From: Candidatus Latescibacterota bacterium
Lineage (GTDB): Bacteria; Latescibacterota; UBA2968; UBA8231
Length of the DNA stretch: 64,000 nucleotides
NCBI GenBank assembly: GCA_965204725.1
Contig: OZ242005.1
Span: 4,800,001 to 4,864,000 of the forward strand
Direction of reading: 5' to 3'
How positions within the stretch are numbered: position 1 is the stretch's first letter; each line of letters starts with the position of its first letter. Positions 13,531-63,800 of the stretch are shown one piece after another. The notes under the pieces were generated by a model. The model was not told the DNA's origin, searched no databases, and saw only the letters and a list, made by a program, of their open reading frames with translations. A program made the translations under genes and the position numbers.

Positions 13531-13565
13531 AAAAGGGGGTGATGCGGTGTACATCACCCCCTTTT
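13531..13565. terminator. Bidirectional intrinsic terminator after csp
   Basis: AAAAGGGGGTGATG-loop-CATCACCCCCTTTT perfect hairpin. Confidence 0.85.
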
Positions 13566-13588
13566 GCACTGTGATAAAGCGCAAGGGT

Positions 13589-13798
13589 CTAAAGTGCTAC
13601 GACGCTCTCAGCGGCCGGGCCTTTCTTGCCCTGAACGACCTCAAACTCCACCTGCTGCCCGTCGGACAAGGTGCGAAACCCCTCGGCCCGGATCGCGCTG
13701 TGATGGACGAAAACATCTTCGCCGTTTTCGCGCTCGATAAATCCGAAGCCCTTCGCGTCGTTGAACCACTTTACGGTTCCCTTCTCGCGGTCTGCCAT
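13589..13798 (-). CDS. Cold-shock protein (CspA family)
   Basis: [31 protein letters not shown]. Confidence 0.96.
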
Positions 13799-14175
13799 GG
13801 GTAAAATCCTTTGCAATGTGCGGTTAGTGCAGAGCGTGCGAATAACTTTGAGTAGGAATCTACTGCTTCAGGCTTTTCGGTAGGAAAACTACATCAGGCC
13901 CGGGGGTAGGAATCTACGCGGATCCGAACGACTGCCAACGTGCGATGAACGCCCCTACAACTATTGCAGAGACACGTAATGGGCTAAATATAGTCAATCT
14001 TAGCCGCAACACAAGCAACTAATTCGCCTGCCGCCGGGCCGTCCAACCCACCCCTTCTCCCTCGTTTCTTGGTTTGGAATTGGTGCTGCGGCCTCTATAT
14101 TAGAAATTCACAAAATGGATAGACGGCCCCAATCCCGTTTATCCCAGCCATCCATGTCGGACCAATGGAGAGACC

Positions 14176-15904: not shown

Positions 15905-15959
15905 GAAAATCCTTTCTGTGTGGAAGGGAAAAGGCTCACCCGGTGCGCGGGCGGCCTCA

Positions 15960-16757: not shown

Positions 16758-16872
16758 GCAACGCCTCCTTTGTGCAGGCAAACCTAAGCGACGAGCCGCC
16801 GCTTGACCAGCCTTTGCCGCGCGTCCCGGAAGAAGGCAACCACCCGCCGCTGGGTTTGGATTTCTCGCTTCG

Positions 16873-42129: not shown

Positions 42130-42200
42130 GGTCTCCTCCAGCGCGTTACGTTGATCCGCCAAGCTACCGGAAACCTAACAAAGAGCGGGCTATCACACTA

Positions 42201-43044
42201 GAAGCTATCTCATAAATAGTCTGGCTGTGCTACGTTAGTGGTATTCCCTTTCGGAGGTATCTCTTATGGATCTTACAGACGAACAGTGGTCGATAGTGTC
42301 CCCACTGCTGCCGGCGTGTCCCAAACGCCGCGATGGCCGGGGTCGTCCGTGGCGTTGTAACCGAGCGGTGCTCAATGGTATTCTGTGGATTCTCCGCACC
42401 GGGGCGCCTGGGCATGACCTGCCTGCTCGCTATCCGTCCTACCAGACCTGCCATCGTCGATTCCAACAGTGGTCGTCTGATGGCACCTTTGAACATATTC
42501 TGCGCACCCTCGCGCACGACTTGCATGAGCGCGGGGGCCTTGATGTGAGCGAATGCTTCATCGATGGCCTGTTTGTCGCGGCGAAAAAAGGGGGGACCAA
42601 GTGGGTCCGACCAAGCGGGGCAAAGGTACGAAGCTCATGGCAGTGGCAGACCGCGCTGGTCTTCCTATCGCCGTACTCATCCAAAGTGCTTCGCCGCACG
42701 AAGTCACCCTCGTAGAAGCCACCCTGGAAAACCGATGGGTCCAGCCCCGACCGCAACGACTCATCGGGGACCGAGCCTACGACTCGGATCGATTGGATGC
42801 GAGCCTGGCCGACCAAGGCATTGAGATGATCGCGCCGCATCGCCGCAATCGTACGCAGGCCAAAACCCAGGACGGGCGGCGGTTGCGGGGCTACAAAAGA
42901 CGCTGGAAAATAGAAAGACTGTTTGCTTGGTTGCATAACTTCCGCCGCATCGTGGTTCGATACGAATACTATGCTGAAAACTACCTCGGCTTTGTACAAC
43001 TCGGATGCATCCTCATACTGCTACGGTATTTATGAGATAGCTTC
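42201..43044 (+). mobile_element. IS5-family insertion sequence, copy 1 (844 bp)
   Basis: Perfect 18-bp terminal IRs GAAGCTATCTCATAAATA with TA on both flanks; split transposase inside. Confidence 0.95.
42266..43035 (+). CDS. IS5 transposase, orfA/orfB joined by -1 programmed frameshift
   Basis: MDLTDEQW...[13 protein letters not shown] (orfA), GDRAYDS and [14 protein letters not shown] (orfB). Slippery AAAAAAGGGGGG at 42584-42595. Confidence 0.9.
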
Positions 43045-44281
43045 TAATACCAAACACGCCGAGCACCGGCACATCGACCGGACTGTACGCCGGCTCGGCT
43101 TGGAGGAGTTGCTGTACGTCGTCGGACGAGACCGAGGGATACGTCAGGTGCAGTCCCTTCTTGTTGGCGCACTCGTACAAATCGCCATACTCGGCTCGGG
43201 GCACGGCGAGGAAACTGAAGACGTGACAGTCGTGTTCCAGTGCGGTCTCAATGGCCGTGCGCAGCACATCTTGCTTGCCGATTCGCCCTAATTGATCGAC
43301 ATAGCCGAGGATGAGCGTATCCGCTTCTGCAAGGACCGAAGCGAGCCGGGGCCGAATGCGTACCCCTATGTCGGACAAGCCCAACACGTGGCCCGCATCC
43401 TTACCAACCAGCCCCTTGCCCACTGGGTCGGCGATGCCCGTAATCTCAAACGCGAGTAGATCGTGCGCCCGGACCAAGGCGTGCATCTCCTTGTTGAACG
43501 GGTAGAGAGCCGCCTTCTGAATCCAAGAAAAACTTGAAGGATTGGCAGGAGGCTCCGGCGCGGCCACTGGGCGCGAGCGCATATTTGGGAGTAGCTCCGG
43601 CGTCCCCTGCAGCGCATTGGCCTGCAACTGCTCGCGCACCTGTTCCAACGATGCCCCCGGATGCGCTTGGCGAATCAAGGCAACCATGCCGGTAACGTGC
43701 GGCGCGGCAAAGCTGGTGCCCGACACCATCACATACCGAGGGTCGGTCCAGCAGACCCGCTGGGCATCGCCGCGGGCGACGCACTCGATCTCGTCCCCCG
43801 GACGATAGTAGTACCCATAGCGTCCGCGGACCTTACCTCCCGCAACGCCAATAACATCTGACAACACGGCTGGGTAGCTTTCGCGCCCGTCATTGTGCTC
43901 GGCAGCGACGAGAATAACCTTGGCTTCACGGGCTTGGCGACAGACCTCGGCGAGTGCGTCCCGGAAGGTAACGTCCGTCGTGCCTAAGCTGAGGTTGACC
44001 ACATCCATCCTCTGCTCAACCGCCCAGCGGATCGCCGCCAGCAGAGCCGGACCATCGGCGGTTAGGGACTCGTCAAAGAGGCGGACATCGTACAGGGTCG
44101 CTGTCGGCGCGATTTGGCGGATAATACCCGCGCAAGCCGTGCCGTGCCCCGCACTAGCAGCCGTTGGCGGAGACACCGAGTCCAAGAGTACCTCGTGAAC
44201 CGCGCCGATCTTTTCGTGCGTCGGGTCAATACCCGAGTCGATGACGGCGACATGGACGGGATGATCGGGTTGATTCGTCAA
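43045..44281 (-). pseudogene. Cytoplasmic S8 peptidase fused to TIGR04066/DUF1611-like domain, truncated by IS5
   Basis: Triad VIDSG / GHGTACAG / SGTSFAAP, no signal peptide. Then ALYPFNKE...GKGLVGKDAG...VDVPVLGVFG, after which the frame runs into the IS end. Confidence 0.8.
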
Positions 44282-44334: not shown

Positions 44335-45018
44335 CTACTCTCGGTTAAAGTAGAAGGCGAGTTCTGGTTTTTGGCGGGCGCGTATGGCAATCGTCGAATC
44401 CATGCGGATCGCCGTTGCTAAGTCCGCGCTGGCCAACGCCGTTTCGCCGCGCCAAGCGCGGATGCGGGCTCGGTAATACCACGCGACTCCTGTTTCGTGG
44501 TCGAGTAACACCGCCCGATTAAGCGCGTTTAACCCTTCGTCTAGTCTGTCTGTTCCTATAAAAAGAAGGCTTCGCTTGATCCACGACTCAAGGTGGTCCG
44601 GGTCGTGCTGCAACGCGGTCTCAAGTGCTGCTTCTGCGGCCGCATAGTCCTTTTCTTGGAGGTGAAGCGAACCAATAAGTCCCCAGAAATGCGCGAAATG
44701 GGCGTCCGTGGAATCGGCGGCCAAGCAGGTTTTGTAAACATGTACGGCTTTCTCTACTTGTCGTAGGTCGCGCAGAAGATCGCCCGTTTTCTGGCATAAT
44801 CCCACGTTTTTGGGATCTAAGCGAAACGCAGCCGAATAAGACTCAAGTGCTTGCTCATAAGCGCGCCGAGCCATCCGGCGTTCATTGTTCGCCATGAGTC
44901 GATCTCCATGCCGTAAGTAAGTATCCCCATCCGATAGATCATATCTCACCATGAGATATAACAGTGAAAGTATCGTCATGGAATTGATTACAACAGTAGA
45001 GACGACCCATTTTCTCAC
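44335..45018 (-). CDS. Membrane-anchored TPR protein
   Basis: N-terminal TM, repeats such as ALESYSAAFRLDPKN, ALQHDPDH, AWYYRARI. Confidence 0.85.
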   Translation of the reverse strand: MRKWVVSTVVINSMTILSLLYLMVRYDLSDGDTYLRHGDRLMANNERRMARRAYEQALESYSAAFRLDPKNVGLCQKTGDLLRDLRQVEKAVHVYKTCLAADSTDAHFAHFWGLIGSLHLQEKDYAAAEAALETALQHDPDHLESWIKRSLLFIGTDRLDEGLNALNRAVLLDHETGVAWYYRARIRAWRGETALASADLATAIRMDSTIAIRARQKPELAFYFNRE

Positions 45019-45764
45019 GGTACAGAATCCAACCTATAAACTCTAGAGGAGAAAACTAATTCTGCTACTATATTGGCAACGCCGTGTAGCACAATACAGG
45101 CTCCAATTGAACGAGATCGTTCATAGTAAAGAACAAGCACGAGACCTAAACCCAAATGAGGTAAAAGTGCCAAAAACGTTCCTTCCGTATTGTAGTGACA
45201 TAAAGCAAACAGTATTACATTGGTTATAACAGCCCATACAAAAGATAAATGCCTTTTGAGGTAGGGATACAGAATACCTCTAAATAGCCACTCCTCCACT
45301 AGAGGAATGACAATGACACCCTGTAATAATCTTATAATTGATAAATCGGGTAGGTGCATTACGGGGGGGACATAACCGGCTGATCGAGATAGATTCGCTG
45401 GAACCGTAATCAACAAGACTAAGAAAACAGCCAGCCAGACTTCTCTACCCATACCATATAGAGACAGTTCTATCTGCTTGGGCACAGTTCCTACAATGAG
45501 ATGAAAACAGGCAAGCATCAAAATCATCGCGGCAGCATGGGATCCAAAGAGGTAAATCGTGACGATTTTCATATCCCGCAACAGCAAAGACTCCTCTACC
45601 CAGTTATCGACACAAGCGTTTCTGAGTGCAATAAAAAAGAATAAAATGGCGAACTGTAGGATGACCAAGATAAGGTTCCATGGACACTCCCATTCTTGCC
45701 CTCGCATGGTATCCCAAGTGTTGATCACGATCCTATATCCCGTCTTAATGTACACACGATGCAC
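45015..45764 (-). CDS. CPBP/Abi (CAAX-like) intramembrane metalloprotease
   Basis: PLVEEWLFRG, FALCH, HGVAN motifs. Start uncertain. Confidence 0.9.
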   Translation of the reverse strand: MHRVYIKTGYRIVINTWDTMRGQEWECPWNLILVILQFAILFFFIALRNACVDNWVEESLLLRDMKIVTIYLFGSHAAAMILMLACFHLIVGTVPKQIELSLYGMGREVWLAVFLVLLITVPANLSRSAGYVPPVMHLPDLSIIRLLQGVIVIPLVEEWLFRGILYPYLKRHLSFVWAVITNVILFALCHYNTEGTFLALLPHLGLGLVLVLYYERSRSIGACIVLHGVANIVAELVFSSRVYRLDSVP

Positions 45765-45886: not shown

Positions 45887-46588
45887 TTACCCTGCGCTGA
45901 TCGAGTATTTTACCCAAGTGGCCCCCGCTGCAAAGAGTGTCTGTAGAGACCAGAAGATTGCAACGGCGAAGGCCGCTTGGAGGCGTTTGAGTGCGCATAT
46001 GCGACTCAAGCCCAAGACGAGAAGCCCATAGTACCAGAAGCTGAAGGGGTTGATATTCATAAGTACAGTTTTGGTTATCGGATGCAGTTCCCCATGCCAG
46101 AGGAGGTCTAAGCCAATAGAAATAGCTAGCTCATCTACCGTTGCTTGGCCTGTCTGAACTTTCATTATGCTTATACCCGCCATCAGCACCCCAGCAATGA
46201 AAGTCGTCATGTTGGAATAGGCGACTAGAGAGAAGATCATCTTGAATTCCGCCAAGCCCTCTAAGACTTGGACGATGAGCCATATCGCGAACGAGGAAAA
46301 GAACCATAGAAGCAGTATGCTGGGAAGGGTGGCGATGGTCGCCACGTAGTGGACAGTACGATTGACCTCCCTGACCTGTTTCAAGTCCGCCGATGGTATG
46401 GAGACTGACATCTGTTCTATAACAGCCTCTTGCAGCAGGGGGAAGGTGAGCCAAGTTATCAGAGTGGATCCCATACCGATAGCGAGGAAGGGGGCTAACC
46501 AGTTAGGGTGCTCGAGGATCTGCCGAAAAGCATGTGAAGGCGACCAAATTATCCAGTATAAATTGCGAAAGGTAAGTGCGGTATCCAT
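45887..46588 (-). CDS. Yip1-domain membrane protein
   Basis: IIWSPSHAFRQILEHPNW, INPFSFW; 5 TM segments. Confidence 0.8.
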   Translation of the reverse strand: MDTALTFRNLYWIIWSPSHAFRQILEHPNWLAPFLAIGMGSTLITWLTFPLLQEAVIEQMSVSIPSADLKQVREVNRTVHYVATIATLPSILLLWFFSSFAIWLIVQVLEGLAEFKMIFSLVAYSNMTTFIAGVLMAGISIMKVQTGQATVDELAISIGLDLLWHGELHPITKTVLMNINPFSFWYYGLLVLGLSRICALKRLQAAFAVAIFWSLQTLFAAGATWVKYSISAG

Positions 46589-46607: not shown

Positions 46608-47129
46608 TTAGAGCAGGTGGCTACTTGGGTTTAGGGACCTATAACCCACTTCCCGACGTTGCAGTATGCCCTGTTCATTTAAAAAAAGCAGCGTCGGGAC
46701 GCGAACTATCCCTAGACGTTCGCGCAACTGAGTTTGGCAACCGAATAATACCAGAAATGAGCCGGTGATGTGCTGCCCGGCACCGCTAGGCAGTAAGGGG
46801 TGTTCTCTGATTACAGCAACGATCTCGACATTCATGATCGACCTGCGGCTTTGCCACTGTTTCAACTCGTCTAATTTAGTATGGCAAAAGCTGCATTCGA
46901 GATCGAGAACGGCGACAATCAGTTTTTTTTCTCGAAAGTCTTCGAGGTGGACGGCATTGCCTTGTCCGTCTTTGAGATCAATTGAGGGCAAAGGTTGACC
47001 GATGCGGGCACTGTGTTTCGTTTTGCTGGTCGTTCCCATCCATAGGAACCCGACGGTTGTCGCTAAGGCGAGTGAAGATAGTACCACGAGTGCCCGTATT
47101 CGGCGATTTACGCGCCTTCCACTAGCCAT
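46608..47129 (-). CDS. TlpA/redoxin-family thiol-disulfide oxidoreductase, membrane-anchored
   Basis: TM anchor, IGQPLPSIDLKD, CSFC (CxxC), VPTLLFLNEQG. Confidence 0.85.
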   Translation of the reverse strand: MASGRRVNRRIRALVVLSSLALATTVGFLWMGTTSKTKHSARIGQPLPSIDLKDGQGNAVHLEDFREKKLIVAVLDLECSFCHTKLDELKQWQSRRSIMNVEIVAVIREHPLLPSGAGQHITGSFLVLFGCQTQLRERLGIVRVPTLLFLNEQGILQRREVGYRSLNPSSHLL

Positions 47130-47580
47130 TGTCCTGCCGCTTCTGTAGGATCGAATCAAAGAGGATTTTGGCCAGAGCTACTCGTTCCCTCTCTACGAGC
47201 TTTGCCTGCACCACAGTACCTTCCAAGTTGTACGCGAGGCGGTCGAAATCGACTTCCCCTTTGAGGGTGATCCAGACCCGGGTCGCGTCAGGTTCGTAGT
47301 CGATACGCCCGTTGATCTGTGCTATAATGGCACGGAGAACCTCTTGTTCGTCATAAGTAATATCAGCATAGTGGCATTCGCGTAGCAGACTCAGGCGCAT
47401 ATCTGGGATGTCCGCCTCCAATATCCAATCTGGTCCTCTGCGGTGGAGCAAACCCTCCAATTCTAGACCGACGTTCACACGTATAGTAGCTAGCCCGATC
47501 ACCATAAACATCAGGATAAGCGTCGTGCCGAATAACAGGACGCCAACTTTCCATTCCAGCTTACGGGGGATTTTCATCAC
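47122..47580 (-). CDS. Single-TM accessory protein, minimal HlyD-like
   Basis: TM followed by ILEADIPD...LRAIIAQI...GTVVQAKLV...LAKILF, the pattern of an HlyD beta-barrel without the coiled coil. Lies directly after the exporter gene. Confidence 0.5.
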   Translation of the reverse strand: MMKIPRKLEWKVGVLLFGTTLILMFMVIGLATIRVNVGLELEGLLHRRGPDWILEADIPDMRLSLLRECHYADITYDEQEVLRAIIAQINGRIDYEPDATRVWITLKGEVDFDRLAYNLEGTVVQAKLVERERVALAKILFDSILQKRQDNG

Positions 47581-47588
47581 GAGTTTAC

Positions 47589-49349
47589 CTAGATATAAGG
47601 CTGATGAAAATTTGCAAAAGGGCCATTTTGATTGATAAGCTCGTTATAGGTACCTGCTTCGACAATTTTCCCTCCAGAGAGGACGTGGATGATGTCGGCA
47701 AGAACCAAGGACGTAGATTGATGAGCTATCAAGAGCGTTGTCCGGTCCCTAGTTGCCCTTTTGAGTATGCGAAGGACTGTCTGTTCCGTGTTGCTGTCGA
47801 GCGAGGACGTTGCTTCATCGAGAATGAGAATCTGCGGATTGCGTATAATTGCCCTAGCCAAAGCTAGGCACTGCTTTTGACCGCCCGAAAGCTGGACTCC
47901 CCCAGATCCGATGCGTGTATCGATACCTGCGGGAAAGTGCTGTATGAACTCCATACAATCCATCTCTTCTAGGGTCTGTTCTATCGCATGGTAAGTAGCA
48001 TTAGAAGTCCCGTAAGCAACATTCTCTCGAATGCTGCCTGTAAAGAAAGACGCATCTTGTCCTACCCATCCGACAACACCACGCAGATGATCCAGATTGT
48101 AGGAGTTTGCGTTGACTCCGTCTATGCGAAGCTCACCGGAGGTTGGCTCGTAGAACCGGACCAACAGGTGAGCCAAGGTGGTCTTCCCCGATCCTATCTT
48201 CCCGACCACGGCAGTGACTTGGCTGGGCTCCAACGTCAAGTCGATTCCGTTTAGCACCGGTAGCCCCTTGTCATAGGAAAAGTAGATGTTTTCGTACACC
48301 ACTTTGCCTTTTCTAATCCGGTATTTGTTCTGAGGAACCTTTTTTTCGAGAGGCGTTTCCATCATTTCGACGACTCGCTTCAAAATACCTATGCCTTGGC
48401 GAAAACTGACGTATAGTACCGACAACTGGTTGACGGGACCGTAAACGTACGCCACCAAAGTGTGGAAGGCCATAAACTGCCCGAGGGTAAGCAGACCTTC
48501 CATGATCGAGTACGCGCCGTACCAGAGGACAGCCAGTCCACTTATGCTGTAGAGAAATATCTGCAGCAATTGAGCACTGACCATTGTCGCGTCACGTTGT
48601 AGGCGGCTCTCGGCTTCTCGACGCAAATAACCCGAAAGCCTCAGAACCTCCTTCCTCGTTCCGCCAAAGACCTTGGCTGCCAAGGCCGAATCCAAAGACT
48701 CTATGCGCATAGAGTTGGTCTGACTCTTCCTCTCCTGTGTCGCGGCACTGTATTTTTGGATGCGTCGCCCGAAGCGGATATTCGTCCAGACAAAGGCTGG
48801 CAGAACTAGGAGAACGACTGAGGTCAGTGTTGAATTGAGGGAGAACATGATCACCAAGGCAATGGCGATGAGCGACAAACTGCTCAAACCCTCAATGTAC
48901 GTTCCTGCCATCAGCGTGTTTAACTGACGTACATCGTCACTGATGCGGGTGGAAAAGTAGCCAGGGCCGCGATTGAGGAGAAAGGAAACAGGAGCCTCAA
49001 GTACGGAGCGAAACAGTTTCAATTCCATATTGAAAAAAACGCGCCGCGAAAACACCAGTAGAAGGTAGCGATGTAGAAAACCTAGACCCAATCCCAGCAA
49101 GGTGGTAAGGATCAGGGTCGCGCATATGACGTTCAGTGCATGGATTTGGCCATTGGCTATAACCCGATCAATGATATAGATGGTCAATACTGGCATCGGT
49201 GACGCGAGGATGGTAGTGAACAGCATGCATACACCCGCTTCCACAGCACGCAGCCAGTAAGGAGAGAAGAAAGGGAGCAACCGTTGAAGTGATGCTAGCA
49301 TCTCCAGCGATCTTTCCATTCTATTTCGTATATCTTCTTTTATAGTCAT
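47589..49349 (-). CDS. Peptide/protein ABC exporter (permease+ATPase) without C39 peptidase domain
   Basis: IIDRVI, LTLGQFMAF, GKIGSGKTT, LSGGQKQ, LDEATS. 586 aa, with TM region starting at the N-terminus. Confidence 0.9.
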   Translation of the reverse strand: MTIKEDIRNRMERSLEMLASLQRLLPFFSPYWLRAVEAGVCMLFTTILASPMPVLTIYIIDRVIANGQIHALNVICATLILTTLLGLGLGFLHRYLLLVFSRRVFFNMELKLFRSVLEAPVSFLLNRGPGYFSTRISDDVRQLNTLMAGTYIEGLSSLSLIAIALVIMFSLNSTLTSVVLLVLPAFVWTNIRFGRRIQKYSAATQERKSQTNSMRIESLDSALAAKVFGGTRKEVLRLSGYLRREAESRLQRDATMVSAQLLQIFLYSISGLAVLWYGAYSIMEGLLTLGQFMAFHTLVAYVYGPVNQLSVLYVSFRQGIGILKRVVEMMETPLEKKVPQNKYRIRKGKVVYENIYFSYDKGLPVLNGIDLTLEPSQVTAVVGKIGSGKTTLAHLLVRFYEPTSGELRIDGVNANSYNLDHLRGVVGWVGQDASFFTGSIRENVAYGTSNATYHAIEQTLEEMDCMEFIQHFPAGIDTRIGSGGVQLSGGQKQCLALARAIIRNPQILILDEATSSLDSNTEQTVLRILKRATRDRTTLLIAHQSTSLVLADIIHVLSGGKIVEAGTYNELINQNGPFANFHQPYI

Positions 49350-49409: not shown

Positions 49410-49441
49410 TAGCACGGCGCGACTATTTATGAGATAACTTC
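49410..49441 (-). mobile_element. Relic of the IS5 left end
   Basis: TAGCACGGCGCGACTATTTATGAGATAACTTC versus IS TAGCACAGCCAGACTATTTATGAGATAGCTTC; IR matches 17/18. Confidence 0.75.
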
Positions 49442-50205
49442 TAGCAATCGCCGGTCGCCTTCGTTAAACGTAGGAACAGGTCTTCCAATGTAGAGTCATT
49501 GGCTTTCTGTTGCAGTTCCCTCACCTTCACCTTGTCGTTCAATGATTCGGTTGAGGCGGAGAAGACTATCTTGCCTTTATGACAGATCGCTACCTTTTCA
49601 CACAATTCTTCCACTATGGGTAGAATATGGGACGTCAAGAAGACCGTCTTGCCTTTTCCAGCGGCATCCTTGAGGAGGTCCTTTATCATCTTGACCGACC
49701 GGGGATCGATTCCGGTAAAGGGTTCGTCGAGGAAGAGAAGTTCTGGGTCGTGCAGCAAAACCGCCGCCAGTGCCAGTTTCTTCTTCATCCCCGCGGAGTA
49801 GGTGCTGATCTGCGCGTCGCTAGCACTGCCTAGATCGAAAAGCTCTAGGAGATCGGCGGTACGTTGACGCAGTGTCGGCTTGTCGAGGCCGAACATCGCT
49901 CCGGAGAAATACAGATGTTCCTGGCCTGTGAGCGATTCGTAAAGGGCAAGGTCCTCGGCCATGATACCGATGCGCTTCTTGATCTCTGTCGCGTTGACCG
50001 TCATCTCTTCCCCCAGAATGTGAACCGTCCCCGCGCTAGGTGCCAAGAGCCCCGACAGCAAGTTGGTCAGCGTGGACTTTCCTGCCCCGTTTGGTCCGAT
50101 GAGTCCGAGTATCACCCCTGGAATAACGTCGATGTCGACATTGTCTATCGCCAAGAGTCTTCCGTATTTCTTTGTTAGTCCGACCGCACGAATTGCGTAT
50201 TCCAT
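49441..50205 (-). CDS. ABC-2 type ATP-binding protein
   Basis: GPNGAGKST, YSAGMKKKL, LDEPFTGID, TLEDLFLRLT. Confidence 0.93.
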   Translation of the reverse strand: MEYAIRAVGLTKKYGRLLAIDNVDIDVIPGVILGLIGPNGAGKSTLTNLLSGLLAPSAGTVHILGEEMTVNATEIKKRIGIMAEDLALYESLTGQEHLYFSGAMFGLDKPTLRQRTADLLELFDLGSASDAQISTYSAGMKKKLALAAVLLHDPELLFLDEPFTGIDPRSVKMIKDLLKDAAGKGKTVFLTSHILPIVEELCEKVAICHKGKIVFSASTESLNDKVKVRELQQKANDSTLEDLFLRLTKATGDC

Positions 50206-50248
50206 GAGACGACCTTCGTTTGCTTTATATTCTTCCAAAGCCCATTCT

Positions 50249-51853
50249 TTATGAGCAGAAACGGATGAGAAACAAGTCCCTTTTATCCAGCCACACCTCG
50301 GCTGCCTTCTGCAAAGTGAGAGTATAGAAAATCGCTGTGGTAATACACATAGCTGCTAGCAGCGACAGTAGGATTATCGGCTGCCTGACGACCTCGTGAA
50401 AGTAATACAGGCCCGCGCCAATTATTATAGCGGAAAGGCTCAGGCCTACTATGGCTAGAAAATCGGCCTGTAGAGAAAGGTAACGCCCGACGATGTTACC
50501 CGGTGAGAGCTTGAGCGGATAGAGTACAGAGGCTATGTTACCAATTAAGGTATGCAGCAGAGACAGGTACAGCATGATCAAGATGATCGCCAGCCTTTCG
50601 GACCAGTCGGTATGTCCCCAACTAAGGTAGAAGGTCCACGCCATACTCGGCCCTGCAATCGCCCCTTGGACAAGCAGATATGCTAGATTTTTACCGACTA
50701 GGATGGTTTTTGGCTGGATTGGAGCTAAAAAATTAAAGACGACTCCCGTAGATTCGAGACCGAAAATATTGTAGAAAATCGCATAGGGTATTACACATAT
50801 TGGCAATAACAACAGCAGTGAATAGGGGCCGACGACGACCCCTTTTGCGACGTGTATCAGAGGGATGGCAATGCCCCAAAGCAGGGTGGATAACAGAATG
50901 AGACGCAGCCGATTTTCGCGTAAGATATAAATCAATTCTTTGGCCGCGACGTTGGCCACTTGGCAGTTGAACAGCCCCTCGAACGCGCTGGTCAGTTTCT
51001 CGAACGTGTTGACATTGTATAAAATCGCCTCTCCCCCTTGAAGAGGCCGCTCGTACAATCTCTTCTTGAGCAGAAAATAGGCAATTATTCCACAGCTAAC
51101 GGCATAGACGATAAGGCCAACCGCTGGCCAGCCTGCGAGCCTGCCAGCGTGAAAACCAAGTAGCAGTTCGCTGACTAGGCCGGGAGGGGTCAAAACCCAA
51201 TACGCGGCAGAGTGGTTGATCGGGGCGATGAGAGTATCGATATCGACATAGTGTCCAAGCATCGAATAGACGGAACCGAGCAGGATAGCAGAGAAGAAGA
51301 TCAGCTTCCCACGATGCCTACTAAGCGACCGGATCAAGTCAGCCAGCAGCAGGCTAAGCATGTATACTAGCATGTGGTTGGCTAGCACGAATAGGGCGAT
51401 AATGAAAAGTAAACCGACTGCAGGAACGAGACCTTGCTTCATTCCATAGAGCGTACCTAGCCACACAGCAAGAAGATAAAAGATCAAAAGCCAAGGGTTG
51501 AAGAGCCCCAACGTTACATCGGCTGCGTAGAGTCTCCATAGCCTGTAAGGGAACCGGACTAGTCGGAACAGTCGAGACATATCGGGCGTGGATATACCTC
51601 GGAACAAGCCCAGCAGTACCCATGCTATGGACAGATAGGCAAAGGTGGCTAGTACCAAACGGGGCAGAATATATGCACCCTGGGTAGTTAGAAGTAGCTG
51701 AGTCGAATAGTAGAACTGAGTTATAAAAAAAATACCCCAGCTAATACCTAAAACGAGTACGGTGCCCATTAATAAACACCATGTCCTCTCCCTCTTTGCC
51801 CAGTTGAGCGAAGCGTGGTATTTCAACCAGAGTATATAGACGACCATCATCAT
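50249..51853 (-). CDS. Multi-pass ABC-2-type permease
   Basis: About 12 TM segments, LTPPG, KELIYILRE, NIFGLE, ILVGKN. Adjacent to the ATPase. Confidence 0.75.
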   Translation of the reverse strand: MMMVVYILWLKYHASLNWAKRERTWCLLMGTVLVLGISWGIFFITQFYYSTQLLLTTQGAYILPRLVLATFAYLSIAWVLLGLFRGISTPDMSRLFRLVRFPYRLWRLYAADVTLGLFNPWLLIFYLLAVWLGTLYGMKQGLVPAVGLLFIIALFVLANHMLVYMLSLLLADLIRSLSRHRGKLIFFSAILLGSVYSMLGHYVDIDTLIAPINHSAAYWVLTPPGLVSELLLGFHAGRLAGWPAVGLIVYAVSCGIIAYFLLKKRLYERPLQGGEAILYNVNTFEKLTSAFEGLFNCQVANVAAKELIYILRENRLRLILLSTLLWGIAIPLIHVAKGVVVGPYSLLLLLPICVIPYAIFYNIFGLESTGVVFNFLAPIQPKTILVGKNLAYLLVQGAIAGPSMAWTFYLSWGHTDWSERLAIILIMLYLSLLHTLIGNIASVLYPLKLSPGNIVGRYLSLQADFLAIVGLSLSAIIIGAGLYYFHEVVRQPIILLSLLAAMCITTAIFYTLTLQKAAEVWLDKRDLFLIRFCS

Positions 51854-51936
51854 ATTGGCGCAAATTCCTAAGTTGTGGCAGAAATCCCATTGCAGCCGTT
51901 CACTACGACGGTACGATATACCTAATAGCTGCACCG

Positions 51937-52002
51937 TCAGCAGCGAAGCTACCCCAGAGTCCTGACCCTAGGGTAGCTTCTAAGTTGCTGCGTCGCTGCT
52001 GA
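51937..52002 (-). terminator. Stem-loop downstream of the precursor gene
   Basis: Inner GAAGCTACCC/GGGTAGCTTC and outer TCAGCAGCGA/TCGCTGCTGA arms. No clear U-tract. Confidence 0.6.
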
Positions 52003-52065
52003 TACTGCTATAGTTATGATTCTGCGAGTAAGCCTAATTCGCAAAATCAAAACACCACGGTATTA

Positions 52066-52909
52066 GAAGCTATCTCATAAATACCGTAGCAGTATGAGGA
52101 TGCATCCGAGTTGTACAAAGCCGAGGTAGTTTTCAGCATAGTATTCGTATCGAACCACGATGCGGCGGAAGTTATGCAACCAAGCAAACAGTCTTTCTAT
52201 TTTCCAGCGTCTTTTGTAGCCCCGCAACCGCCGCCCGTCCTGGGTTTTGGCCTGCGTACGATTGCGGCGATGCGGCGCGATCATCTCAATGCCTTGGTCG
52301 GCCAGGCTCGCATCCAATCGATCCGAGTCGTAGGCTCGGTCCCCGATGAGTCGTTGCGGTCGGGGCTGGACCCATCGGTTTTCCAGGGTGGCTTCTACGA
52401 GGGTGACTTCGTGCGGCGAAGCACTTTGGATGAGTACGGCGATAGGAAGACCAGCGCGGTCTGCCACTGCCATGAGCTTCGTACCTTTGCCCCGCTTGGT
52501 CGGACCCACTTGGTCCCCCCTTTTTTCGCCGCGACAAACAGGCCATCGATGAAGCATTCGCTCACATCAAGGCCCCCGCGCTCATGCAAGTCGTGCGCGA
52601 GGGTGCGCAGAATATGTTCAAAGGTGCCATCAGACGACCACTGTTGGAATCGACGATGGCAGGTCTGGTAGGACGGATAGCGAGCAGGCAGGTCATGCCC
52701 AGGCGCCCCGGTGCGGAGAATCCACAGAATACCATTGAGCACCGCTCGGTTACAACGCCACGGACGACCCCGGCCATCGCGGCGTTTGGGACACGCCGGC
52801 AGCAGTGGGGACACTATCGACCACTGTTCGTCTGTAAGATCCATAAGAGATACCTCCGAAAGGGAATACCACTAACGTAGCACAGCCAGACTATTTATGA
52901 GATAGCTTC
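52066..52909 (-). mobile_element. IS5-family insertion sequence, copy 2 (844 bp, inverted relative to copy 1)
   Basis: Same IRs, TA flanks and length as copy 1; all ORF translations identical. Confidence 0.95.
52075..52844 (-). CDS. IS5 transposase, orfA/orfB (-1 frameshift)
   Basis: Translations identical to 42266-43035. Confidence 0.9.
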
Positions 52910-52921
52910 TAGCAAGACTGG

Positions 52922-53116
52922 CTAGAAGCAAGAAAAAGCGACGCTATGGACTGCTACGGAAACAGCGAAAGCACCGACTATGCCGCCCGTGGGGACGAAC
53001 GTGGCTACGCTAAGGCCGAGACCTAGAACGGACAATCCGCATTCGACCCCGTATCCGCACACAGACGCGTTTCCGCCATACGGACGCAACGTGCGTTTCC
53101 TCAAAGTACGGGTCAT
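52922..53116 (-). CDS. Putative bacteriocin/RiPP precursor peptide (64 aa)
   Basis: Strong AAGGAGGTG RBS. MTRTLRKRTLRPYGG-NASVCGYGVECGLSVLGLGLSVATFVPTGGIVGAFAVSVAVHSVAFSCF. Heads an export/processing gene run. Confidence 0.8.
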   Translation of the reverse strand: MTRTLRKRTLRPYGGNASVCGYGVECGLSVLGLGLSVATFVPTGGIVGAFAVSVAVHSVAFSCF

Positions 53117-53218
53117 ATCTATCACCTCCTTTCTATATTGGATTTGTGAATCCGTTCGGCGACCCGCGGGTCTGCAACTATGTAACTAGTATTAGACACG
53201 CGTCTACTGAACGGTTCA

Positions 53219-54673
53219 TTAAGTCAACCTGTGGGAGATGCCCATGCTTTGAAAAATAGCCTGGGCCGTAGCCTTGTATTCCGCAGCTGCATTAGTCCTC
53301 CCTTCTTGAGTGGCGATCTGAGACAAAGCTTCTAGTGCCTTGCCTTGGTCAATTCGACTGCCAACTTGCTCGCTCTTATGCAACACCTCTTGGCAACATG
53401 AAGCAGCCTTCTCGAAATGTCCCTGACTAGTATATACTGAGCTTAAGTAATGGCCTATCTGCATTTCTAAGGTAGGTAGGCCCATCTTATAGCATTGGTC
53501 TACGAACCGTCGGAGAGAGAGAATTGTCGCCTCCACATCACTTCCGCCGGACAGCATTGAGAGCAGGATTTCGCACTCTAGAGCCAAGGGACGCAACCCT
53601 GATTGCTGAGCTAGAGTCAGAGCCTTGGCCAAGAGCTCCTGAGCTTGGGCGGTAATTCCCAACCGCAACAGGCACCTGCCCCATGTCAAACGGCTTCTGA
53701 CTTGACCGCGCCTGTAGCGGAGGTGTTCCTCTAAGTCAATCGCCTCTGCGAAATAGCGGCCGCCGTTTTTCATGTCACCGCTGCTTAGATGCATTAGTCC
53801 GCGTAAGCCCAACACTCTCCCTTTGGCGTGAGCGTCGTCCAAGCTCTCGTATAGCTCTTGCGCTGCGTCAATGTGGTGGCTAGCGTCATTCCTCCCTTGC
53901 AAAAGCCATAGGTAGGCCAATTGCAGGTGCAGCCGGCCTACGACATTAATTCTCCGCCTGCTTATTTGGACCAGTGCTTCACGGAGCACCGTTTCGCCAT
54001 CGTGGAACTTGCCCATGGCCGTGAGCAATCCGCCTTTGACCAACGCTCTCGACGCGGCTGCCTCCACTGTATCCTGTCGTTTCGTGATGCTGTAAATTCC
54101 TTCGTCGCAAAGCTGGAGGCCTTGGTAGTATTGTCCGCGGTGCATGCAGAGAAGAGCTAATCGAGTCTTGACGAAATTCACGTGGTGGCCCTCGTCTTCC
54201 GTTTTCAATACGCCGGTCGCCTCTTCGAGACACCTGTTAGCCCCGGTCCAATCCCCCATATCTTGCAGGACTTGGGCGCGATTGATTTGTATCAGTCCTT
54301 GGAACTGCTCCCATCCGCGCTCTGCGGCGAGGTTTGCGGAACGAGAGAAGACAGCTTCGGCACTGTATAGATCGGATGTGAGGACACAGGCTACTCCTTG
54401 TGCCGCTTGGGCTATCAGGCTTGCGGTGGCCGTGTCGGAAGAAGCGTACAATTCCGCCGCTTCCTCGTATTTCTTAGCTGCGAAAGCCTCTTCGCCCCGC
54501 CGAAAACGATCGATTGCTAGTTCGTGCTTTGGCTCGGGTAGGGACTGTAATTCTTCCTGTAAGTCTTTTTCATTTGGCTTGAAAAACTGCTGACTATCGT
54601 CGGGTAGTTGAACTTCTGCGAAACCCTCTACCTCTTTCGCTTTCAGCTTGCGTATCCAGTGGTTCCTGATCAT
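53219..54673 (-). CDS. Soluble TPR-repeat protein (MalT/Rap-like helical repeats)
   Basis: Repeats such as NRAQVLQDMGDWTGANRCLEEA, LSSVYTSQGHFEKA, ALEALSQIATQEG. No signal peptide and no evident HTH. Confidence 0.8.
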   Translation of the reverse strand: MIRNHWIRKLKAKEVEGFAEVQLPDDSQQFFKPNEKDLQEELQSLPEPKHELAIDRFRRGEEAFAAKKYEEAAELYASSDTATASLIAQAAQGVACVLTSDLYSAEAVFSRSANLAAERGWEQFQGLIQINRAQVLQDMGDWTGANRCLEEATGVLKTEDEGHHVNFVKTRLALLCMHRGQYYQGLQLCDEGIYSITKRQDTVEAAASRALVKGGLLTAMGKFHDGETVLREALVQISRRRINVVGRLHLQLAYLWLLQGRNDASHHIDAAQELYESLDDAHAKGRVLGLRGLMHLSSGDMKNGGRYFAEAIDLEEHLRYRRGQVRSRLTWGRCLLRLGITAQAQELLAKALTLAQQSGLRPLALECEILLSMLSGGSDVEATILSLRRFVDQCYKMGLPTLEMQIGHYLSSVYTSQGHFEKAASCCQEVLHKSEQVGSRIDQGKALEALSQIATQEGRTNAAAEYKATAQAIFQSMGISHRLT

Positions 54674-58916: not shown

Positions 58917-59125
58917 TCAGGGTGATAAAGTATAGTCAAATTATCGTATTGGGCGTGAGGCGATACTAGACCAGCGTCCTCATTTCCCGCTGGCCATCGG
59001 GCACCCCTTGCCATTTAGCAAGAGCTCGACATAATAACTGTAGGCCGAACAACCGCCGAAAGCATCGGATAAGTTGCTCGCTGCGCTCCCGATTCGGCGC
59101 GGCGTTGAACGAACAGGAGCATGAC

Positions 59126-60304
59126 ATGACCAAGACCGTGATTCTCGATACGAATGTGCTTTACGATATAGGATTGAATCGAGTCCGCGTTGAGGACGTC
59201 AGGCGGCCTAGAGAGCATCTCTGTTACTCTCCAATCTCAATTATTGAGTTGGTATCTAAACTAGATGGCGGGTCGTTTGCAGACCGAAAGGCAGCGGCTG
59301 GCGTTATCCTCAAGCACCGCATAGACGAACTCCCGGACCCCGAATCACATCTGACTACGGCATTTGGCTACAAGCTAGCGGAACCTGCCCCTTCATACTC
59401 CGACGCTGTCCGAGCCTTGGCTAAAGGTCAGAGCCTTGAAGAGGTGAGGCGCGGCGTACCAGACTACGAGGTTCGGGTCCGACGGAGCTTGAATGTACCG
59501 TTTGCAGCGACTTGGCGTGAGAAGGGTGAGCAAGAATGGGTGGATTCTCTCATCACCCTGATGGAGGATAATATCCCGGGGTTTCAAAAGTGGTACACAA
59601 AGGATCCAGCAAAACGGTTCTCGTCTGTGCCTAAACTTCGAGGAGAGGAGAAAGAGAGGTTTCTCGCCGGAATGAAGTCAAGAGAGTGGTCTGCTCGAAT
59701 TATATCCGCTTGTCAGATGCGCGCCTTCTTCAAAGCGGACAAAAACGACCTCCGTGTATTTACTAAGCAGAGAGCAAATGGATTAGCCGCGGCCATTCCC
59801 AAGATAGAGTGCTACTCCCATATATACACGCACTACTTGATTCGCCTAATGACTGAGGGGGTCTTACCCAAGAAGAACGATAGCGGGGATATTGATTTCT
59901 TTCTCTACTCGACTGACGATGACCACGTCGTGGCGACCAAAGACAATAGGTGGATCAACATTGCGGAGGCCGCAGGGTTCGCCCGAAGGATACGCCGGCA
60001 CGGATGCGAGCTCAGAGAAGCCGCATCGGCTGAAAGTCGGAATCGTCCAGAGGAGGAGGCCGCCAGATATGGCAATATGGACTTTGAAGACTGCATTGAA
60101 ATCCGACCCGGTGTTCGCAGTGGCAAGCCCTGTTTCAAAGGCACCCGAATTACGGTCTATGATGTATTGGAATACTTAGAGGGGGGGATGACGGAGGTTG
60201 AGCTTTTAGACGATTTTCCGACTCTGACACCGCAGCACATCCGCGCCGCCCGGGCCTTTGCCGATGCCCATAAACTTCAGTTCGCACCCGGTTCCACGGC
60301 GTGA
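59126..60304 (+). CDS. PIN-like domain protein in frame with a C-terminal DUF433 antitoxin
   Basis: VILDTNV, SPISIIEL, NDSGD PIN acidic motifs. From ATG 60077: IRPGVRSGKPCFKGTRITVYDVL...DFPTL (DUF433). Confidence 0.75.
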   Translation: MTKTVILDTNVLYDIGLNRVRVEDVRRPREHLCYSPISIIELVSKLDGGSFADRKAAAGVILKHRIDELPDPESHLTTAFGYKLAEPAPSYSDAVRALAKGQSLEEVRRGVPDYEVRVRRSLNVPFAATWREKGEQEWVDSLITLMEDNIPGFQKWYTKDPAKRFSSVPKLRGEEKERFLAGMKSREWSARIISACQMRAFFKADKNDLRVFTKQRANGLAAAIPKIECYSHIYTHYLIRLMTEGVLPKKNDSGDIDFFLYSTDDDHVVATKDNRWINIAEAAGFARRIRRHGCELREAASAESRNRPEEEAARYGNMDFEDCIEIRPGVRSGKPCFKGTRITVYDVLEYLEGGMTEVELLDDFPTLTPQHIRAARAFADAHKLQFAPGSTA

Positions 60305-60672
60305 AACTGCTCCTTGACGAGAACCTTAGCCATCGGCTCGTTGCACGACTTGAGACATCTTTTCCCGGCACCGTCAGTGTCGATTATATTGGGCTTCACA
60401 GCCAGCCTGATATCGCTATTTGGGCTTATGCCGCCGCACAGGGCTTTGCAATTGTGTCGAAGGATGAGGACCTTCGTCAACTCAGTTTCTTCCGAGGCCA
60501 TCCGCCAAAGGTAATATGGCTTAATGTGGGAAACGCTGGGACCGACCGGGTTGCGGACTTGTTGCTGTGGAACAAAGATCGGATCATCGCTTTTCTCGGC
60601 CAGCGTGAAGACTCTCTTCTCACTCTAGAATCGAGACAATCTGCCGATTATTCAGTTATGAACCGCCAATAA
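60301..60672 (+). CDS. DUF5615 family PIN-like toxin
   Basis: MKLLLDENLS, DIAIWAYA, IVSKDED, GHPPKVIWL; GTGA overlap with the DUF433 stop. Confidence 0.9.
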   Translation: MKLLLDENLSHRLVARLETSFPGTVSVDYIGLHSQPDIAIWAYAAAQGFAIVSKDEDLRQLSFFRGHPPKVIWLNVGNAGTDRVADLLLWNKDRIIAFLGQREDSLLTLESRQSADYSVMNRQ

Positions 60673-60708
60673 TCTGTACACCCCAAGAACTCATGGAGGA
60701 ATAACACC

Positions 60709-60888
60709 ATGTGGCGCGATATCATCGTAGAAGAAATTCGCCGCAATCGTCAGGTGTATGCAGCAAAATTTCATCACGACATCAAAGCGATCTGCCGCGC
60801 CGCCCGCGAGCAGCAAAGAAAAAGCGGGCACAAGATCGTTTCTTTGCCGCCGCGACCTGTCGCAACAGCTACGGAGGATAGAGGATAA
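60709..60888 (+). CDS. Small hypothetical protein (59 aa), antitoxin-like
   Basis: GGAGGA RBS. MWRDIIVEEIRRNRQVYAAKFHHDIKAICRAAREQQRKSGHKIVSLPPR. Below the ORF-track cutoff. Confidence 0.7.
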   Translation: MWRDIIVEEIRRNRQVYAAKFHHDIKAICRAAREQQRKSGHKIVSLPPRPVATATEDRG

Positions 60889-60892
60889 TTTT

Positions 60893-63800
60893 GTGAACCA
60901 AAGATCTATCTTCTCAACATATCTGAACGACCTGACCGCCGTCGTCCGGCAGGGCGACGCACGGGAGGAGAGCTTCTACCCGGCACTGGCGGATATGCTC
61001 AGGGAAACGGCTCGCGCCACCGGGCGGACACACGTACACGTCACCACACTGCCCAAGCCCACTGAGGGCGGCAACCCGGACTTCCGGTTGTGGAATGGGA
61101 CGGATCGCATCGTGGGCTATGTCGAGGCCAAGAAGCCGACGGAGGAGCGGTTGGATCTCGTCGAGAACTCCGAACAACTCAAACGCTACCGTTCAACGTT
61201 TCCCAATCTCATCCTCACCAACTTTCTCGAGTTCCGCCTGTATCGCGATGGCGAGCGCGTGGACGCGGTCAGCGTTGGTCGGCCTTCGGTGCTCAACGCG
61301 CTGGGCACAACGCCGCCGCTGGAAAATCAAGCCGAACTCGCCGCTCTTCTCGACCGCTTTCTCGACTTTGCGCTGCCCTCGATGTTCACCGCCGAATCCT
61401 TCGCCGTTGAACTGGCAAAACGCACACGCCTGCTCCGCGATGTGATCGGCGAGCAGTTTGAGCAGGAACGCAACGCGCCCAAGATGCTCTCCGGTTTCTT
61501 CGAGGCGTTTCAGACTTATCTCATCGGGTCGCTGACAACGGACGATTTCGCCGATCTGTTCGCGCAGACGATAGCCTACGGCCTGTTTGCCGCTCGCACT
61601 CGGGCTGGGGATGGATTCAACCGCCGCGTTGCGTTCGACAATATCCCACACACCATCGGCGTCTTGCGCGACCTGTTCCGCTACATCTCGCTCGACGAAT
61701 TGCCCGCCCCACTCGCTTGGTGTGTGGATGACCTCGCCGAGGTGCTATCCGTGGCCGACGCGCCGGGCATTCTGGACAGCTACTACCGCGAGGGCAAGGG
61801 CGGCGATCCCATCGTGCATTTTTACGAGACGTTCTTGGCGCAATACGATCCCGACGAGCGCGAGCGGCGAGGGGTTTATTACACGCCCGAACCGGTCGTT
61901 GGGTACATCGTCCGTTCCCTAAATGGCCTGCTCAAAACCGAATTTGACAAACGCGACGGCCTCGCTTCGGATGGCGTTATGTTGCTCGATCCAGCAGCCG
62001 GGACGATGACCTTTGTCGCCCGTGCGGCGCAACAGGCGGTTGCCGAGTTTGAGGAGAAATACGGCAGTGGCGGCCGGGCGGACTTCATCCGTCGGCACAT
62101 CCTTGAGAATTTCTACGCGCTGGAGTTGATGATGGCTCCTTACGCGGTCGGCCATCTCAAGATGAGCTTCTTCTTAGAGGAACTCGGGCACCGCCTCGCC
62201 GATGACGAGCGGGTGCCCTTTTATCTCACAAATACGCTCGACATGGAGGAACTAGAGGAAAGCCGGTTGCCCGGCCTGTCCGCACTGGCCGAGGAGTCCC
62301 GTTTGGCTGGCGCGGTTAAGAAACAGACGCCGATCTTGGTCATCTTGGGCAATCCGCCCTATTCGGGGCATTCGAGCAACACAGGCGATTGGATTACGGA
62401 GTTAATCAACGATTACAAGCAGGTGGATGGAGAGCCGTTGGGAGAGAGAAATCTGAAATGGTTGCAAGATGACTATGTCAAGTTCCTACGTTTTGCCCAG
62501 TGGAAAGTAGAACAAGCCGGTCGCGGCGTCGTGGGGATGATCACCAACCACAGTTATCTCGATAACCCGACGTTTCGCGGGATGCGACAGAGTCTGATGC
62601 AGACTTTCGATGACATTTACATCCTCGACTTGCACGGCAATTCGCTGAAAAAGGAAACCAGTCCAGATGGTAGCCCTGATCAAAATGTCTTTGACATCCG
62701 GCAAGGCGTGGCCATCGCCTTTTTCGTCAAGCGCGGCGAAGGTCGAGAATCGGAAGCCGTCGTCCAGCACGCCGAATGTTACGGAATGCGGGAGAGCAAG
62801 TATGAACGGCTCGACGCCCATGACCTCGGTAGCACCAAATGGCAACAAATAAATCCAGCATCGCCGTTCTATCTGTTCGTGCCCCGCGACGCCGCGCTTG
62901 AAGCCGAGTATCGTCGGTTCCTTTCTATTCCCGAAGTATTTTCTATCTCCGAAGTATTTCCGATCAACAGCGTCGGCGTTGTAACCGCCCGCGACCGTCT
63001 GACAATCCATTGGTCTGAGCAAGAGACATGGGATACGGTGCGGGCTTTTTTAGAGATGGACCCGGAACTAGCTCGGCAGGGATATAAACTCGGCGACGAT
63101 ACGCAAGAGTGGAAAGTGACGATGGCGCAAAAGGACTTGCGGGATTCCGGCCCGAAACGTGAGAATGTGATTCCGCTCCTGTATCGGCCCTTTGACGTGC
63201 GCCATACCTATTACACCGGCCACTCGCGGGGATTCATCTGTAGGCCCCGTTCCGAAGTCATGCGGCACATGTTGGCTGGGGGGAATCTGGCGTTGTGTGT
63301 TGGGCGTCAAGGGCAGGTTATCGGCGCGGGCGAGTGGAATTTGGTCTATTGCTCGCAGAACATAGGGGATCTTAACTTGTTCTACCGCGGCGGAAACGTG
63401 AACTTCCCTCTCTACCTCTATCCCACCGCTGACCGCGACGACCTTTTCGCGCAACACGAATCGTCCGAGCGTCAGCCGAATCTGAGTCCCAAACTGGTTG
63501 AGATGCTTGAGGAAGCACATGGTCAAGCGCCCTCGCCCGAAGCGATCTTTTACTACACATATTCAGTCTTGCACGCGCCTGCGTACCGCGAGAAATACGC
63601 CGAATTTCTGCGGATCGATTTCCCCCGCATCCCGTTCACAAAGGACAGCGCGTTGTTCGCCAAACTCGCCGAACTCGGTGAGCGATTGGTCGGCCTACAC
63701 CTGCTCACGTCGCCCGAACTCGACCCACCGGCCTGTCGCTTTGACGGCGAAGGCGACGCGGTTGTCGCACGGACGAAGGCGCAGGGCTTTCGCTATGACG

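Follow-up and report, generated by a model that had tools for sequence, protein, structure and literature searches.

A candidate leader-dependent precursor peptide of Latescibacterota and its gene cluster, broken by insertion sequences

The leader-peptide systems closest to the gene studied here are those of the CLI_3235 type (TIGR04065) from the phylum Bacillota. One of them, SacP23 of Paenibacillus polymyxa, is described in part of a published report as a precursor encoded with an ATP-binding cassette (ABC) transporter, TIGR04068, TIGR04066 and TIGR04069 proteins and a subtilisin-like protease (PMC10731318), and two reports quote a prediction that cysteine is the modified residue in clostridial relatives (PMC7343975, PMC10731318). 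In 200 genomes of the class Clostridia, the TIGR04065 model (membership cut-off of 26 bits) found 13 peptides in five genomes; genuine members read MKKLGKK, a spacer, T[IVL]xAY and then a CxC-rich core, and ten of them share three invariant cysteines with CxC-type spacing. A second point of comparison is offered by the class II bacteriocins and microcins with a double-glycine leader (PF10439), which are, like the peptide described below, small, glycine-rich and hydrophobic, with ABC export and immunity-like membrane proteins, and some members of which have a disulfide near the C-terminus. Here, we analyse P0001, a gene on the minus strand at 52922–53116 of a 64,000-nucleotide stretch of DNA (‘the window’; contig OZ242005.1, positions 4,800,001 to 4,864,000) from a bacterium of the phylum Latescibacterota, together with its gene cluster. 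Judged by sequence comparison, the P0001 system appears to be an undescribed relative or variant of the CLI_3235-type leader-peptide systems, and the cluster is broken by insertion sequences (ISs) in this genome.

The precursor gene and its homologues

The gene and its ribosome-binding site are as follows.

52922..53116, minus strand: precursor peptide gene P0001, 64 aa plus stop codon, from the open reading frame (ORF) translation and homologues
53123..53129, minus strand: Shine–Dalgarno sequence GGAGGTG, 6 nt ahead of the ATG, read from the letters

The translation is MTRTLRKRTLRPYGGNASVCGYGVECGLSVLGLGLSVATFVPTGGIVGAFAVSVAVHSVAFSCF, followed by the stop codon. A longer, GTG-started form would begin within the Shine–Dalgarno site, and translation therefore likely starts at the ATG. 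The preliminary description of this DNA, made from its letters and ORFs, had counted five Arg/Lys residues (R3, R6, K7, R8 and R11) and no Asp or Glu in the first 15 residues of a 64-aa ORF, and cysteines at positions 5, 11 and 48 of the remaining 49 residues, i.e. Cys20, Cys26 and Cys63; these counts are correct, as are the two hydrophobic segments that it saw around PTGG (9-residue hydropathy above 1.4 across about residues 27–39 and 47–60). A scan of the surroundings of the gene returned no σ70 promoter (0 sites) and no terminator.

The closest homologue lies in another Latescibacterota lineage (genome G084, L078:3209-3430(-)), at a locus with the same gene order. The two peptides are 42% identical over their full length (BLASTP, E = 5e-14), and both have GY, a PxGG turn and a C-terminal FSCF. 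The order TPR gene, precursor, membrane protein and ABC genes was found again in a third genome, G031, and a small-ORF scan of loci anchored on the neighbouring genes detected further homologous peptides, P0001-like in their start and type of core, encoded immediately upstream of genes homologous to that of the 561-aa membrane protein of the cluster. With one 42% orthologue and about 30 more distant relatives, P0001 can be regarded as a real gene for a precursor peptide; the proposal of the preliminary description is thereby borne out by an orthologue in syntenic position and by a recurring family, which so far appears almost only in Latescibacterota.

Profile searches of 5.8 billion proteins returned 18 proteins at E ≤ 10 (3179 candidates) and, in a second search, 28 proteins at E ≤ 1 (8000 candidates scored), and a single-sequence word-index search of the same proteins gave the query alone among four candidates. 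A full HMMER search of 1.84 billion representatives returned just P0001 and P0002; the latter (1186 aa, E = 2e-12) is a tandem-repeat protein and was rejected as a repeat/composition artefact. All matches of a six-frame search of 60 relatives had E > 0.003, and the one in G031 (E = 0.017) turned out to be a true homologue. When P0001 was omitted from the profile, it was recovered at E = 1.7e-7 among 40,821 small ORFs, a value slightly biased by alignment columns that had been made with P0001 present. Of the two signs on which the preliminary description had staked its proposal, leader/core conservation is seen in alignments of 20 and 30 sequences (see below), and purifying selection is suggested by the sister pair of homologous genes in G136 and G137, which differ by seven synonymous and six non-synonymous changes, all six conservative (pN/pS for non-synonymous over synonymous sites of 0.036/0.130, i.e. 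0.27).

Leader, core and kinship with CLI_3235 peptides

All 20 sequences of alignment A6 (P0001 and 19 homologues) have K7 and Y22, and conservation reaches at least 90% at L5, E25, C26 and C63; in the 30 sequences of alignment A7, K7, Y22 and C26 do not vary, and the positions with at least 90% conservation include E25, G45 and C63. The preliminary description had ended the leader after 15 residues, at Gly14-Gly15, and had left C20 as a free third cysteine. Both points fail against the homologues: GG occurs in these columns in none of the 19, and neither does C20, whose position is inside the conserved leader. Since the GG is unmatched and conservation runs on to [AG]Y22 and E25, the leader should reach to about residue 25 rather than 15. 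The alignments suggest a leader of about 22–25 residues and a core of about 39 residues, and C20 is probably cut away along with the leader.

53042..53116, minus strand: predicted leader, residues 1–25, M..L.K...Y...V.[AG]Y..E (GY in P0001), from alignments A6 and A7
52925..53041, minus strand: predicted core, residues 26–64, with Cys26, helix 1, TFVPTGG turn, helix 2 and Cys63-Phe64, from alignments, hydropathy and AlphaFold2 (AF2)

In the P0001 sub-family, the core is a pair of hydrophobic segments rich in Gly, Ala and Val, with one cysteine at either end. The AlphaFold check of the hairpin suggested in the preliminary description gave, with low confidence, two helices around the PTGG turn in two runs (residues 20–40 and 46–63 in the first, 24–38 and 46–62 in the second). 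A hairpin core and a bond between Cys26 and Cys63, counted as C11 and C48 in that description, fit these models and the conservation of both cysteines.

The same leader is found on peptides with acidic, aromatic, non-hydrophobic cores of three to four cysteines, which adjoin genes for fusions of an S8 protease with TIGR04066. The P0001 sub-family aligns with 15 of these other Latescibacterota precursors over 23 leader columns (hhalign, 91%, E = 9e-7). Leader-family ORFs occur in 20 of 61 S8–TIGR04066 loci (E < 0.01), every one on the S8 strand and in two copies at three of the loci, a count that is partly by construction because the profile was built from many of those very sequences; a profile trained on just the 15 non-hydrophobic leaders gave further matches in five non-training loci. 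Such a conserved leader ahead of a hypervariable core is the signature of precursor peptides. Peptides of 110–130 aa with Ser/Thr/Pro/Gly-rich or acidic bodies carry the same leader as well (L041:7206-7589, L047:5597-5929, L055:8752-9111 and L074:6510-6899, plus), so the leader family extends beyond peptides of about 70 aa.

One member of the family stands in an intact cluster of the same genome.

L014 (G000:C1:3964000-3983999), about 9814-16898, minus strand: paralogous intact cluster, from locus reading

Its precursor (16701-16898, minus strand) has 65 aa, the same leader and an acidic four-Cys core, and the cluster also encodes a CxxC protein, an ABC exporter, a rhodanese, a 654-aa S8–TIGR04066 fusion, an acyl carrier protein (ACP), a 218-aa protein and a BtrH-related protein; after these come HlyD/RND efflux genes. 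The other Latescibacterota precursors, that of L014 included, are like P0001 in their leader family and in the accompanying S8–TIGR04066, ACP, 200-aa and BtrH-like genes, whereas their cores are acidic or aromatic with three to four cysteines, and rhodanese, β-propeller or RND efflux genes take the place of the large membrane protein and the DrrA-type ATPase. P0001 itself belongs with the hydrophobic two-Cys sub-family by its leave-out profile match and by K7, Y22, E25, C26 and C63. Sub-family genes lie directly upstream of a large membrane protein and a DrrA-type ATPase and some kilobases upstream of S8–TIGR04066, on the same strand, in the loci covered, namely the window (with the IS removed), G084, G031, G136/G137/G047 and L025-L027.

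How close is this family to CLI_3235? The TIGR04065 hidden Markov model (HMM) gave no match at E ≤ 10 to P0001 or anywhere in the whole genome, matched none of the ten Latescibacterota precursors tested, and found nothing in four non-Latescibacterota genomes bearing S8–TIGR04066 relatives. Yet the P0001 leader appears to share the layout of CLI_3235 leaders (M-K-x-L-x-K-K, a spacer of 6–10 residues, a hydrophobic residue, x and A-Y), and the 15 other Latescibacterota leaders align in the same register with ten genuine TIGR04065 peptides, with modest statistical support (hhalign, 56%, E = 1e-4). Of the likeness to CLI_3235 proposed in the preliminary description, the leader architecture is probably shared, and formal membership fails. 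The core differs too, being hydrophobic with two cysteines 37 residues apart instead of CxC-rich. At the level of the cluster, a subtilisin-like protease, TIGR04066, an acyl-carrier-type protein and an ABC transporter are common to both systems, although all TIGR04066 matches remain under the 200-bit cut-off (45–118 bits here, 130.6 bits in G084); P0001 does travel with S8 and TIGR04066 proteins, as the preliminary description had noted in comparing it with the CLI_3235 family. The Latescibacterota cluster differs in having neither a TIGR04068 maturase nor a TIGR04069-type carrier: the cluster ACP gave no match to TIGR04069, no TIGR04068 radical S-adenosylmethionine (SAM) enzyme was found among the ORFs of the window, paralogous and G084 clusters, and the only TIGR04068 matches in the genome, at 3.904 and 3.953 Mb, reach 82 and 20 bits versus a cut-off of 500 and lie outside both of its clusters. 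Moreover, S8 and TIGR04066 are fused in one protein in Latescibacterota, where the system has in addition genes for BtrH-like or transglutaminase-like, CPBP, Yip1 and thioredoxin proteins.

The gene cluster and its disruption

The cluster genes, from 54673 down to 43013, are all on the minus strand.

53219..54673, minus strand: TPR protein, 484 aa, directly upstream of P0001; position kept in G031 (27% identity over 479 aa, E = 3e-42)
51925..52063, minus strand: structured intergenic RNA between the precursor and membrane-protein genes (−61.9 kcal/mol, z −6.55, equalled by 0 of 200 shuffles; 16-bp perfect stem)
50249..51934, minus strand: polytopic membrane protein, 561 aa, without family match in library searches; presumed permease partner of the DrrA-type ATPase
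49441..50238, minus strand: DrrA-type ABC ATPase (TIGR01188, E = 1.3e-70)
47589..49349, minus strand: 586-aa ABC exporter of the MsbA/HlyB type, lacking a C39 peptidase domain (library searches)
47122..47580, minus strand: 152-aa protein with an N-terminal hydrophobic segment, without family match in library searches
46608..47159, minus strand: membrane-anchored ResA/TlpA-like thioredoxin with a CSFC motif (library searches)
45887..46588, minus strand: Yip1/YknW-like membrane protein (library searches)
45015..45764, minus strand: CPBP (Rce1-like) intramembrane protease (library searches)
44335..45018, minus strand: TPR protein, 227 aa (ORF reading)
43013..44281, minus strand: S8 protease with the N-terminal half of TIGR04066 (model positions 2–156 of 361; library searches), the frame running into IS copy A

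The nearest model to the S8 domain is the leader protease QhpE (E = 2.4e-42), and a signal peptide was not seen by eye. QhpE has a role in leader removal. The exporter gave no Peptidase_C39 match, and it aligns from position 180 of the TIGR01193 model and from position 137 of the TIGR03796 model; with the GG unconserved and the exporter devoid of C39, the view of the preliminary description that P0001 is not a C39-type double-glycine substrate is upheld. The BtrH-like protein matches DarH weakly (E = 1.9e-5); a PDB sequence search returned nothing for it (best E = 0.24), and only subtilisins for the S8 fusion protein. In G084, where the orthologous cluster is intact, the equivalent of the ACP and BtrH-like genes is a fusion of an ACP with a transglutaminase-like (papain-fold) domain (L105, G084:C32, 3083-4435, minus strand), a gene arrangement hinting at a partnership between the ACP and the BtrH-like enzyme. 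The structured RNA may be an attenuator or a processing site. A perfect 12-nt palindrome, GACCCGCGGGTC, is located at 53161–53172, within the 102-nt spacer between the TPR and precursor genes, and may be an operator or a small hairpin. The cluster forms a low-GC island (45–55% versus 58–65%), and the membrane-protein marker occurs in nine of 168 genomes of the phylum and in none of 30 other genomes of the same genus.

Insertion sequences, which the preliminary description passed over, interrupt this arrangement.

52064..52909, minus strand: IS copy B, IS5-family-like, two overlapping transposase frames, 12 nt past the P0001 stop codon (perfect-repeat span 52059-52912)
42198..43051, plus strand: IS copy A, cutting the S8–TIGR04066 gene; one end of a 1.09-Mb inversion
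49410..49444, no strand assigned: IS-end remnant, 35 nt, 89% match, between the DrrA-type ATPase and the exporter
G000:C1:3753435-3754283: third IS copy, beside the displaced TIGR04066 half

Copies A and B are 854-nt perfect inverted repeats, the element itself being about 846 bp with TA flanks. The genome contains 12 full copies, a 278-nt fragment and the 35-nt remnant; the 100% identity of eight of the full copies marks the expansion as recent. Target-site duplications, considered as a test of independent insertions versus a composite transposon, proved uninformative, as TA flanks every copy. Copy B is missing from contigs of two other studies, in which the joint 52063->52910 skips 846 nt, and its insertion is therefore strain-specific; the P0001 gene has no differing letters in these two bridging contigs. 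Runs X7 and X9 yielded no contig joining across the copy B site.

At copy A, the N-terminal half of the S8–TIGR04066 protein ends ...PVLGVFG. The missing TIGR04066 half (model positions 159–360) is at 3.754 Mb, where the displaced frame resumes SSAQQGKFTLQL and is followed by genes for an ACP, a 201-aa and a 332-aa protein and by a CPBP fragment. The intact paralogue reads ...PVLAVTGTSSQQGKFTLQL across the same point and matches the split halves, so about one codon straddles the IS. The outer flanking genes, a 529-aa gene in the window and a 331-aa gene at 3.752 Mb, are 1.09 Mb apart here, and their orthologues are divergent neighbours, 1.4–14 kb apart, in nine genomes of the same genus. We therefore conclude that recombination between IS copies inverted about 1.09 Mb (3.754–4.842 Mb) and tore the cluster in two. 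Because copy B splits the precursor from the transporter genes, and IS insertion with inversion removes the TIGR04066 half and the ACP, 201-aa and BtrH-like genes, the peptide may be made but not fully matured in this strain.

Predicted pathway and alternative explanations

The reading that we favour, and hold to be reasonably probable, is that P0001 encodes a ribosomally made, leader-dependent, bacteriocin-like precursor of a hydrophobic, disulfide-closed hairpin, served by S8 leader removal, ABC export and self-protection genes. The cytoplasmic S8 domain would remove the leader near the [AG]Y..E motif, and the MsbA-type exporter, lacking C39, would carry the peptide across the inner membrane. 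There, the membrane-anchored CxxC thioredoxin could help to join Cys26 to Cys63, and the bond would clamp the two helices into a hairpin closed nearly end to end, which might then insert in target membranes. Protection of the producer would fall to the DrrA-type ABC pair, the CPBP protease and the Yip1/YknW-like protein; CPBP/Abi proteins and YknW have roles in bacteriocin or toxin immunity. Finally, a further modification is probably the work of the TIGR04066 domain together with the ACP and BtrH-like (or transglutaminase-like) proteins.

Several observations weigh against this reading. Processing, export, disulfide formation and activity are all predicted steps. Both AF2 models have low confidence (mean pLDDT, the predicted local distance difference score, of 54.2 and 56.8), the predicted helices of just about 15–17 residues are short for a membrane span, and two of 20 homologues have their cysteines at other places. 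The ties to the wider families loosen at the level of the sub-family: without both P0001 and its G084 orthologue, the profile gives P0001 an E value of 0.027, ranked just behind the members among the 40,821 ORFs; the HMM from just the 15 non-hydrophobic Latescibacterota leaders misses P0001 at E ≤ 10; and the hhalign match between the P0001 sub-family and TIGR04065 peptides is a weak one (8%, E = 0.004), with the same register by eye and in hhalign and GY for AY in P0001. The ESM Atlas likeness to class II bacteriocins (0.87) lies below the evidence level of the tool itself and serves only as a lead. Moreover, with its cluster disrupted, the peptide may be functionless in this strain.

This last point leads to the most substantial alternative, against which we lean nonetheless: P0001 could be a relic here, its ORF intact merely because the IS events are recent, with no mature product. 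The position of copy B between the precursor and the downstream genes, the split S8–TIGR04066 gene with its partner genes 1.09 Mb away, the eight identical IS copies that indicate a recent expansion, and the low-GC island with a marker absent from the 30 other genomes of the genus would all suit a relic. Yet the ORF, the Shine–Dalgarno site and the S8 domain are all intact, the second, intact S8–TIGR04066/ACP/BtrH-like cluster of the genome could act in trans, and IS-free alleles exist in other samples; the relic explanation also bears on activity in one strain and not on the identity of the gene. We may also wonder whether the conserved cysteines are sites of enzymatic modification, acylated or cross-linked via the ACP, BtrH-like and TIGR04066 proteins, the product being a modified (lipo)peptide. 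The ACP and the papain-like/transglutaminase-like protein are constant partners of the S8–TIGR04066 gene, and the prediction of cysteine modification in clostridial relatives mentioned in the introduction, as quoted in PMC7343975 and PMC10731318, points the same way. However, neither cluster of this genome has a radical-SAM enzyme, a CxxC thioredoxin-like protein is encoded in the P0001 cluster, and cysteines at both ends of a hairpin offer the simplest disulfide geometry, so we think modified cysteines rather unlikely.

An unprocessed small membrane protein, i.e. a two-helix hairpin that serves the adjacent ABC transporter as accessory subunit or regulator, would account for a hydrophobic peptide whose gene is always directly upstream of the large membrane protein and ABC ATPase, and for a basic N-terminus in agreement with the established positive-inside rule. 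We nevertheless consider it improbable, since the same leader stands on acidic, Cys-rich, non-hydrophobic peptides of sister clusters, sometimes in two copies, and since a dedicated protease, exporter and thioredoxin accompany P0001. Scarcely credible, in our view, is cleavage of a short double-glycine leader after G15, which would make P0001 a class II bacteriocin or microcin, despite the GG at 14–15, the glycine-rich hydrophobic core and the ESM Atlas ranking, a lead only, in which Blp/class II bacteriocin clusters come first. Unlike in such peptides, the GG is shared by none of the 19 homologues while conservation runs on to Y22 and E25, the leader is basic and not acidic, the exporter is without C39, and P0001 has no match to PF10439 or to any other Pfam family at E ≤ 0.1.

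A bolder extension of the favoured bacteriocin-like hairpin, which we regard as doubtful and offer tentatively, is that the Latescibacterota clusters represent a new class of peptides that are made on ribosomes and modified after translation (RiPPs), one that would keep a CLI_3235-type leader and the S8/TIGR04066/carrier set while radical-SAM chemistry is replaced. TIGR04066 (a DUF1611-like P-loop protein) would load the ACP, and the papain-fold BtrH-like or transglutaminase-like enzyme would move the ACP-bound group to the peptide; the P0001 sub-family would then be acylated, disulfide-cyclized helical hairpins. If this is true, the P0001-type hairpin mimics circular bacteriocins without peptide-bond ring closure.

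Literature searches, in which supplementary files were not covered, found no paper describing the P0001 family, and the analysis provides a leader/core definition for a peptide family named by no HMM library searched. It also places the TIGR04066 and carrier-protein portion of the CLI_3235 system in surroundings free of radical SAM, in which its job could be studied alone; what TIGR04066, the ACP and the BtrH-like protein do is the most interesting point of the system. For expression, G084, G031 and the IS-free alleles, in which the orthologous clusters are intact, are better choices than the IS-damaged one. Latescibacterota is a phylum without cultured members and the source bacterium is marine. 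The peptides come from uncultured bacteria whose DNA occurs in sequencing runs labelled sponge metagenome, and this habitat is mined for natural products; among the runs listed as containing the DNA, none was of RNA.

Elsewhere in the window, the ORF list read by eye shows at 59105–64000 a 399-aa protein, a 123-aa protein overlapping its end and next, extending past the window edge, one of more than 1081 aa, the motifs of which look, by eye, like those of a fused DNA methylase/restriction enzyme.
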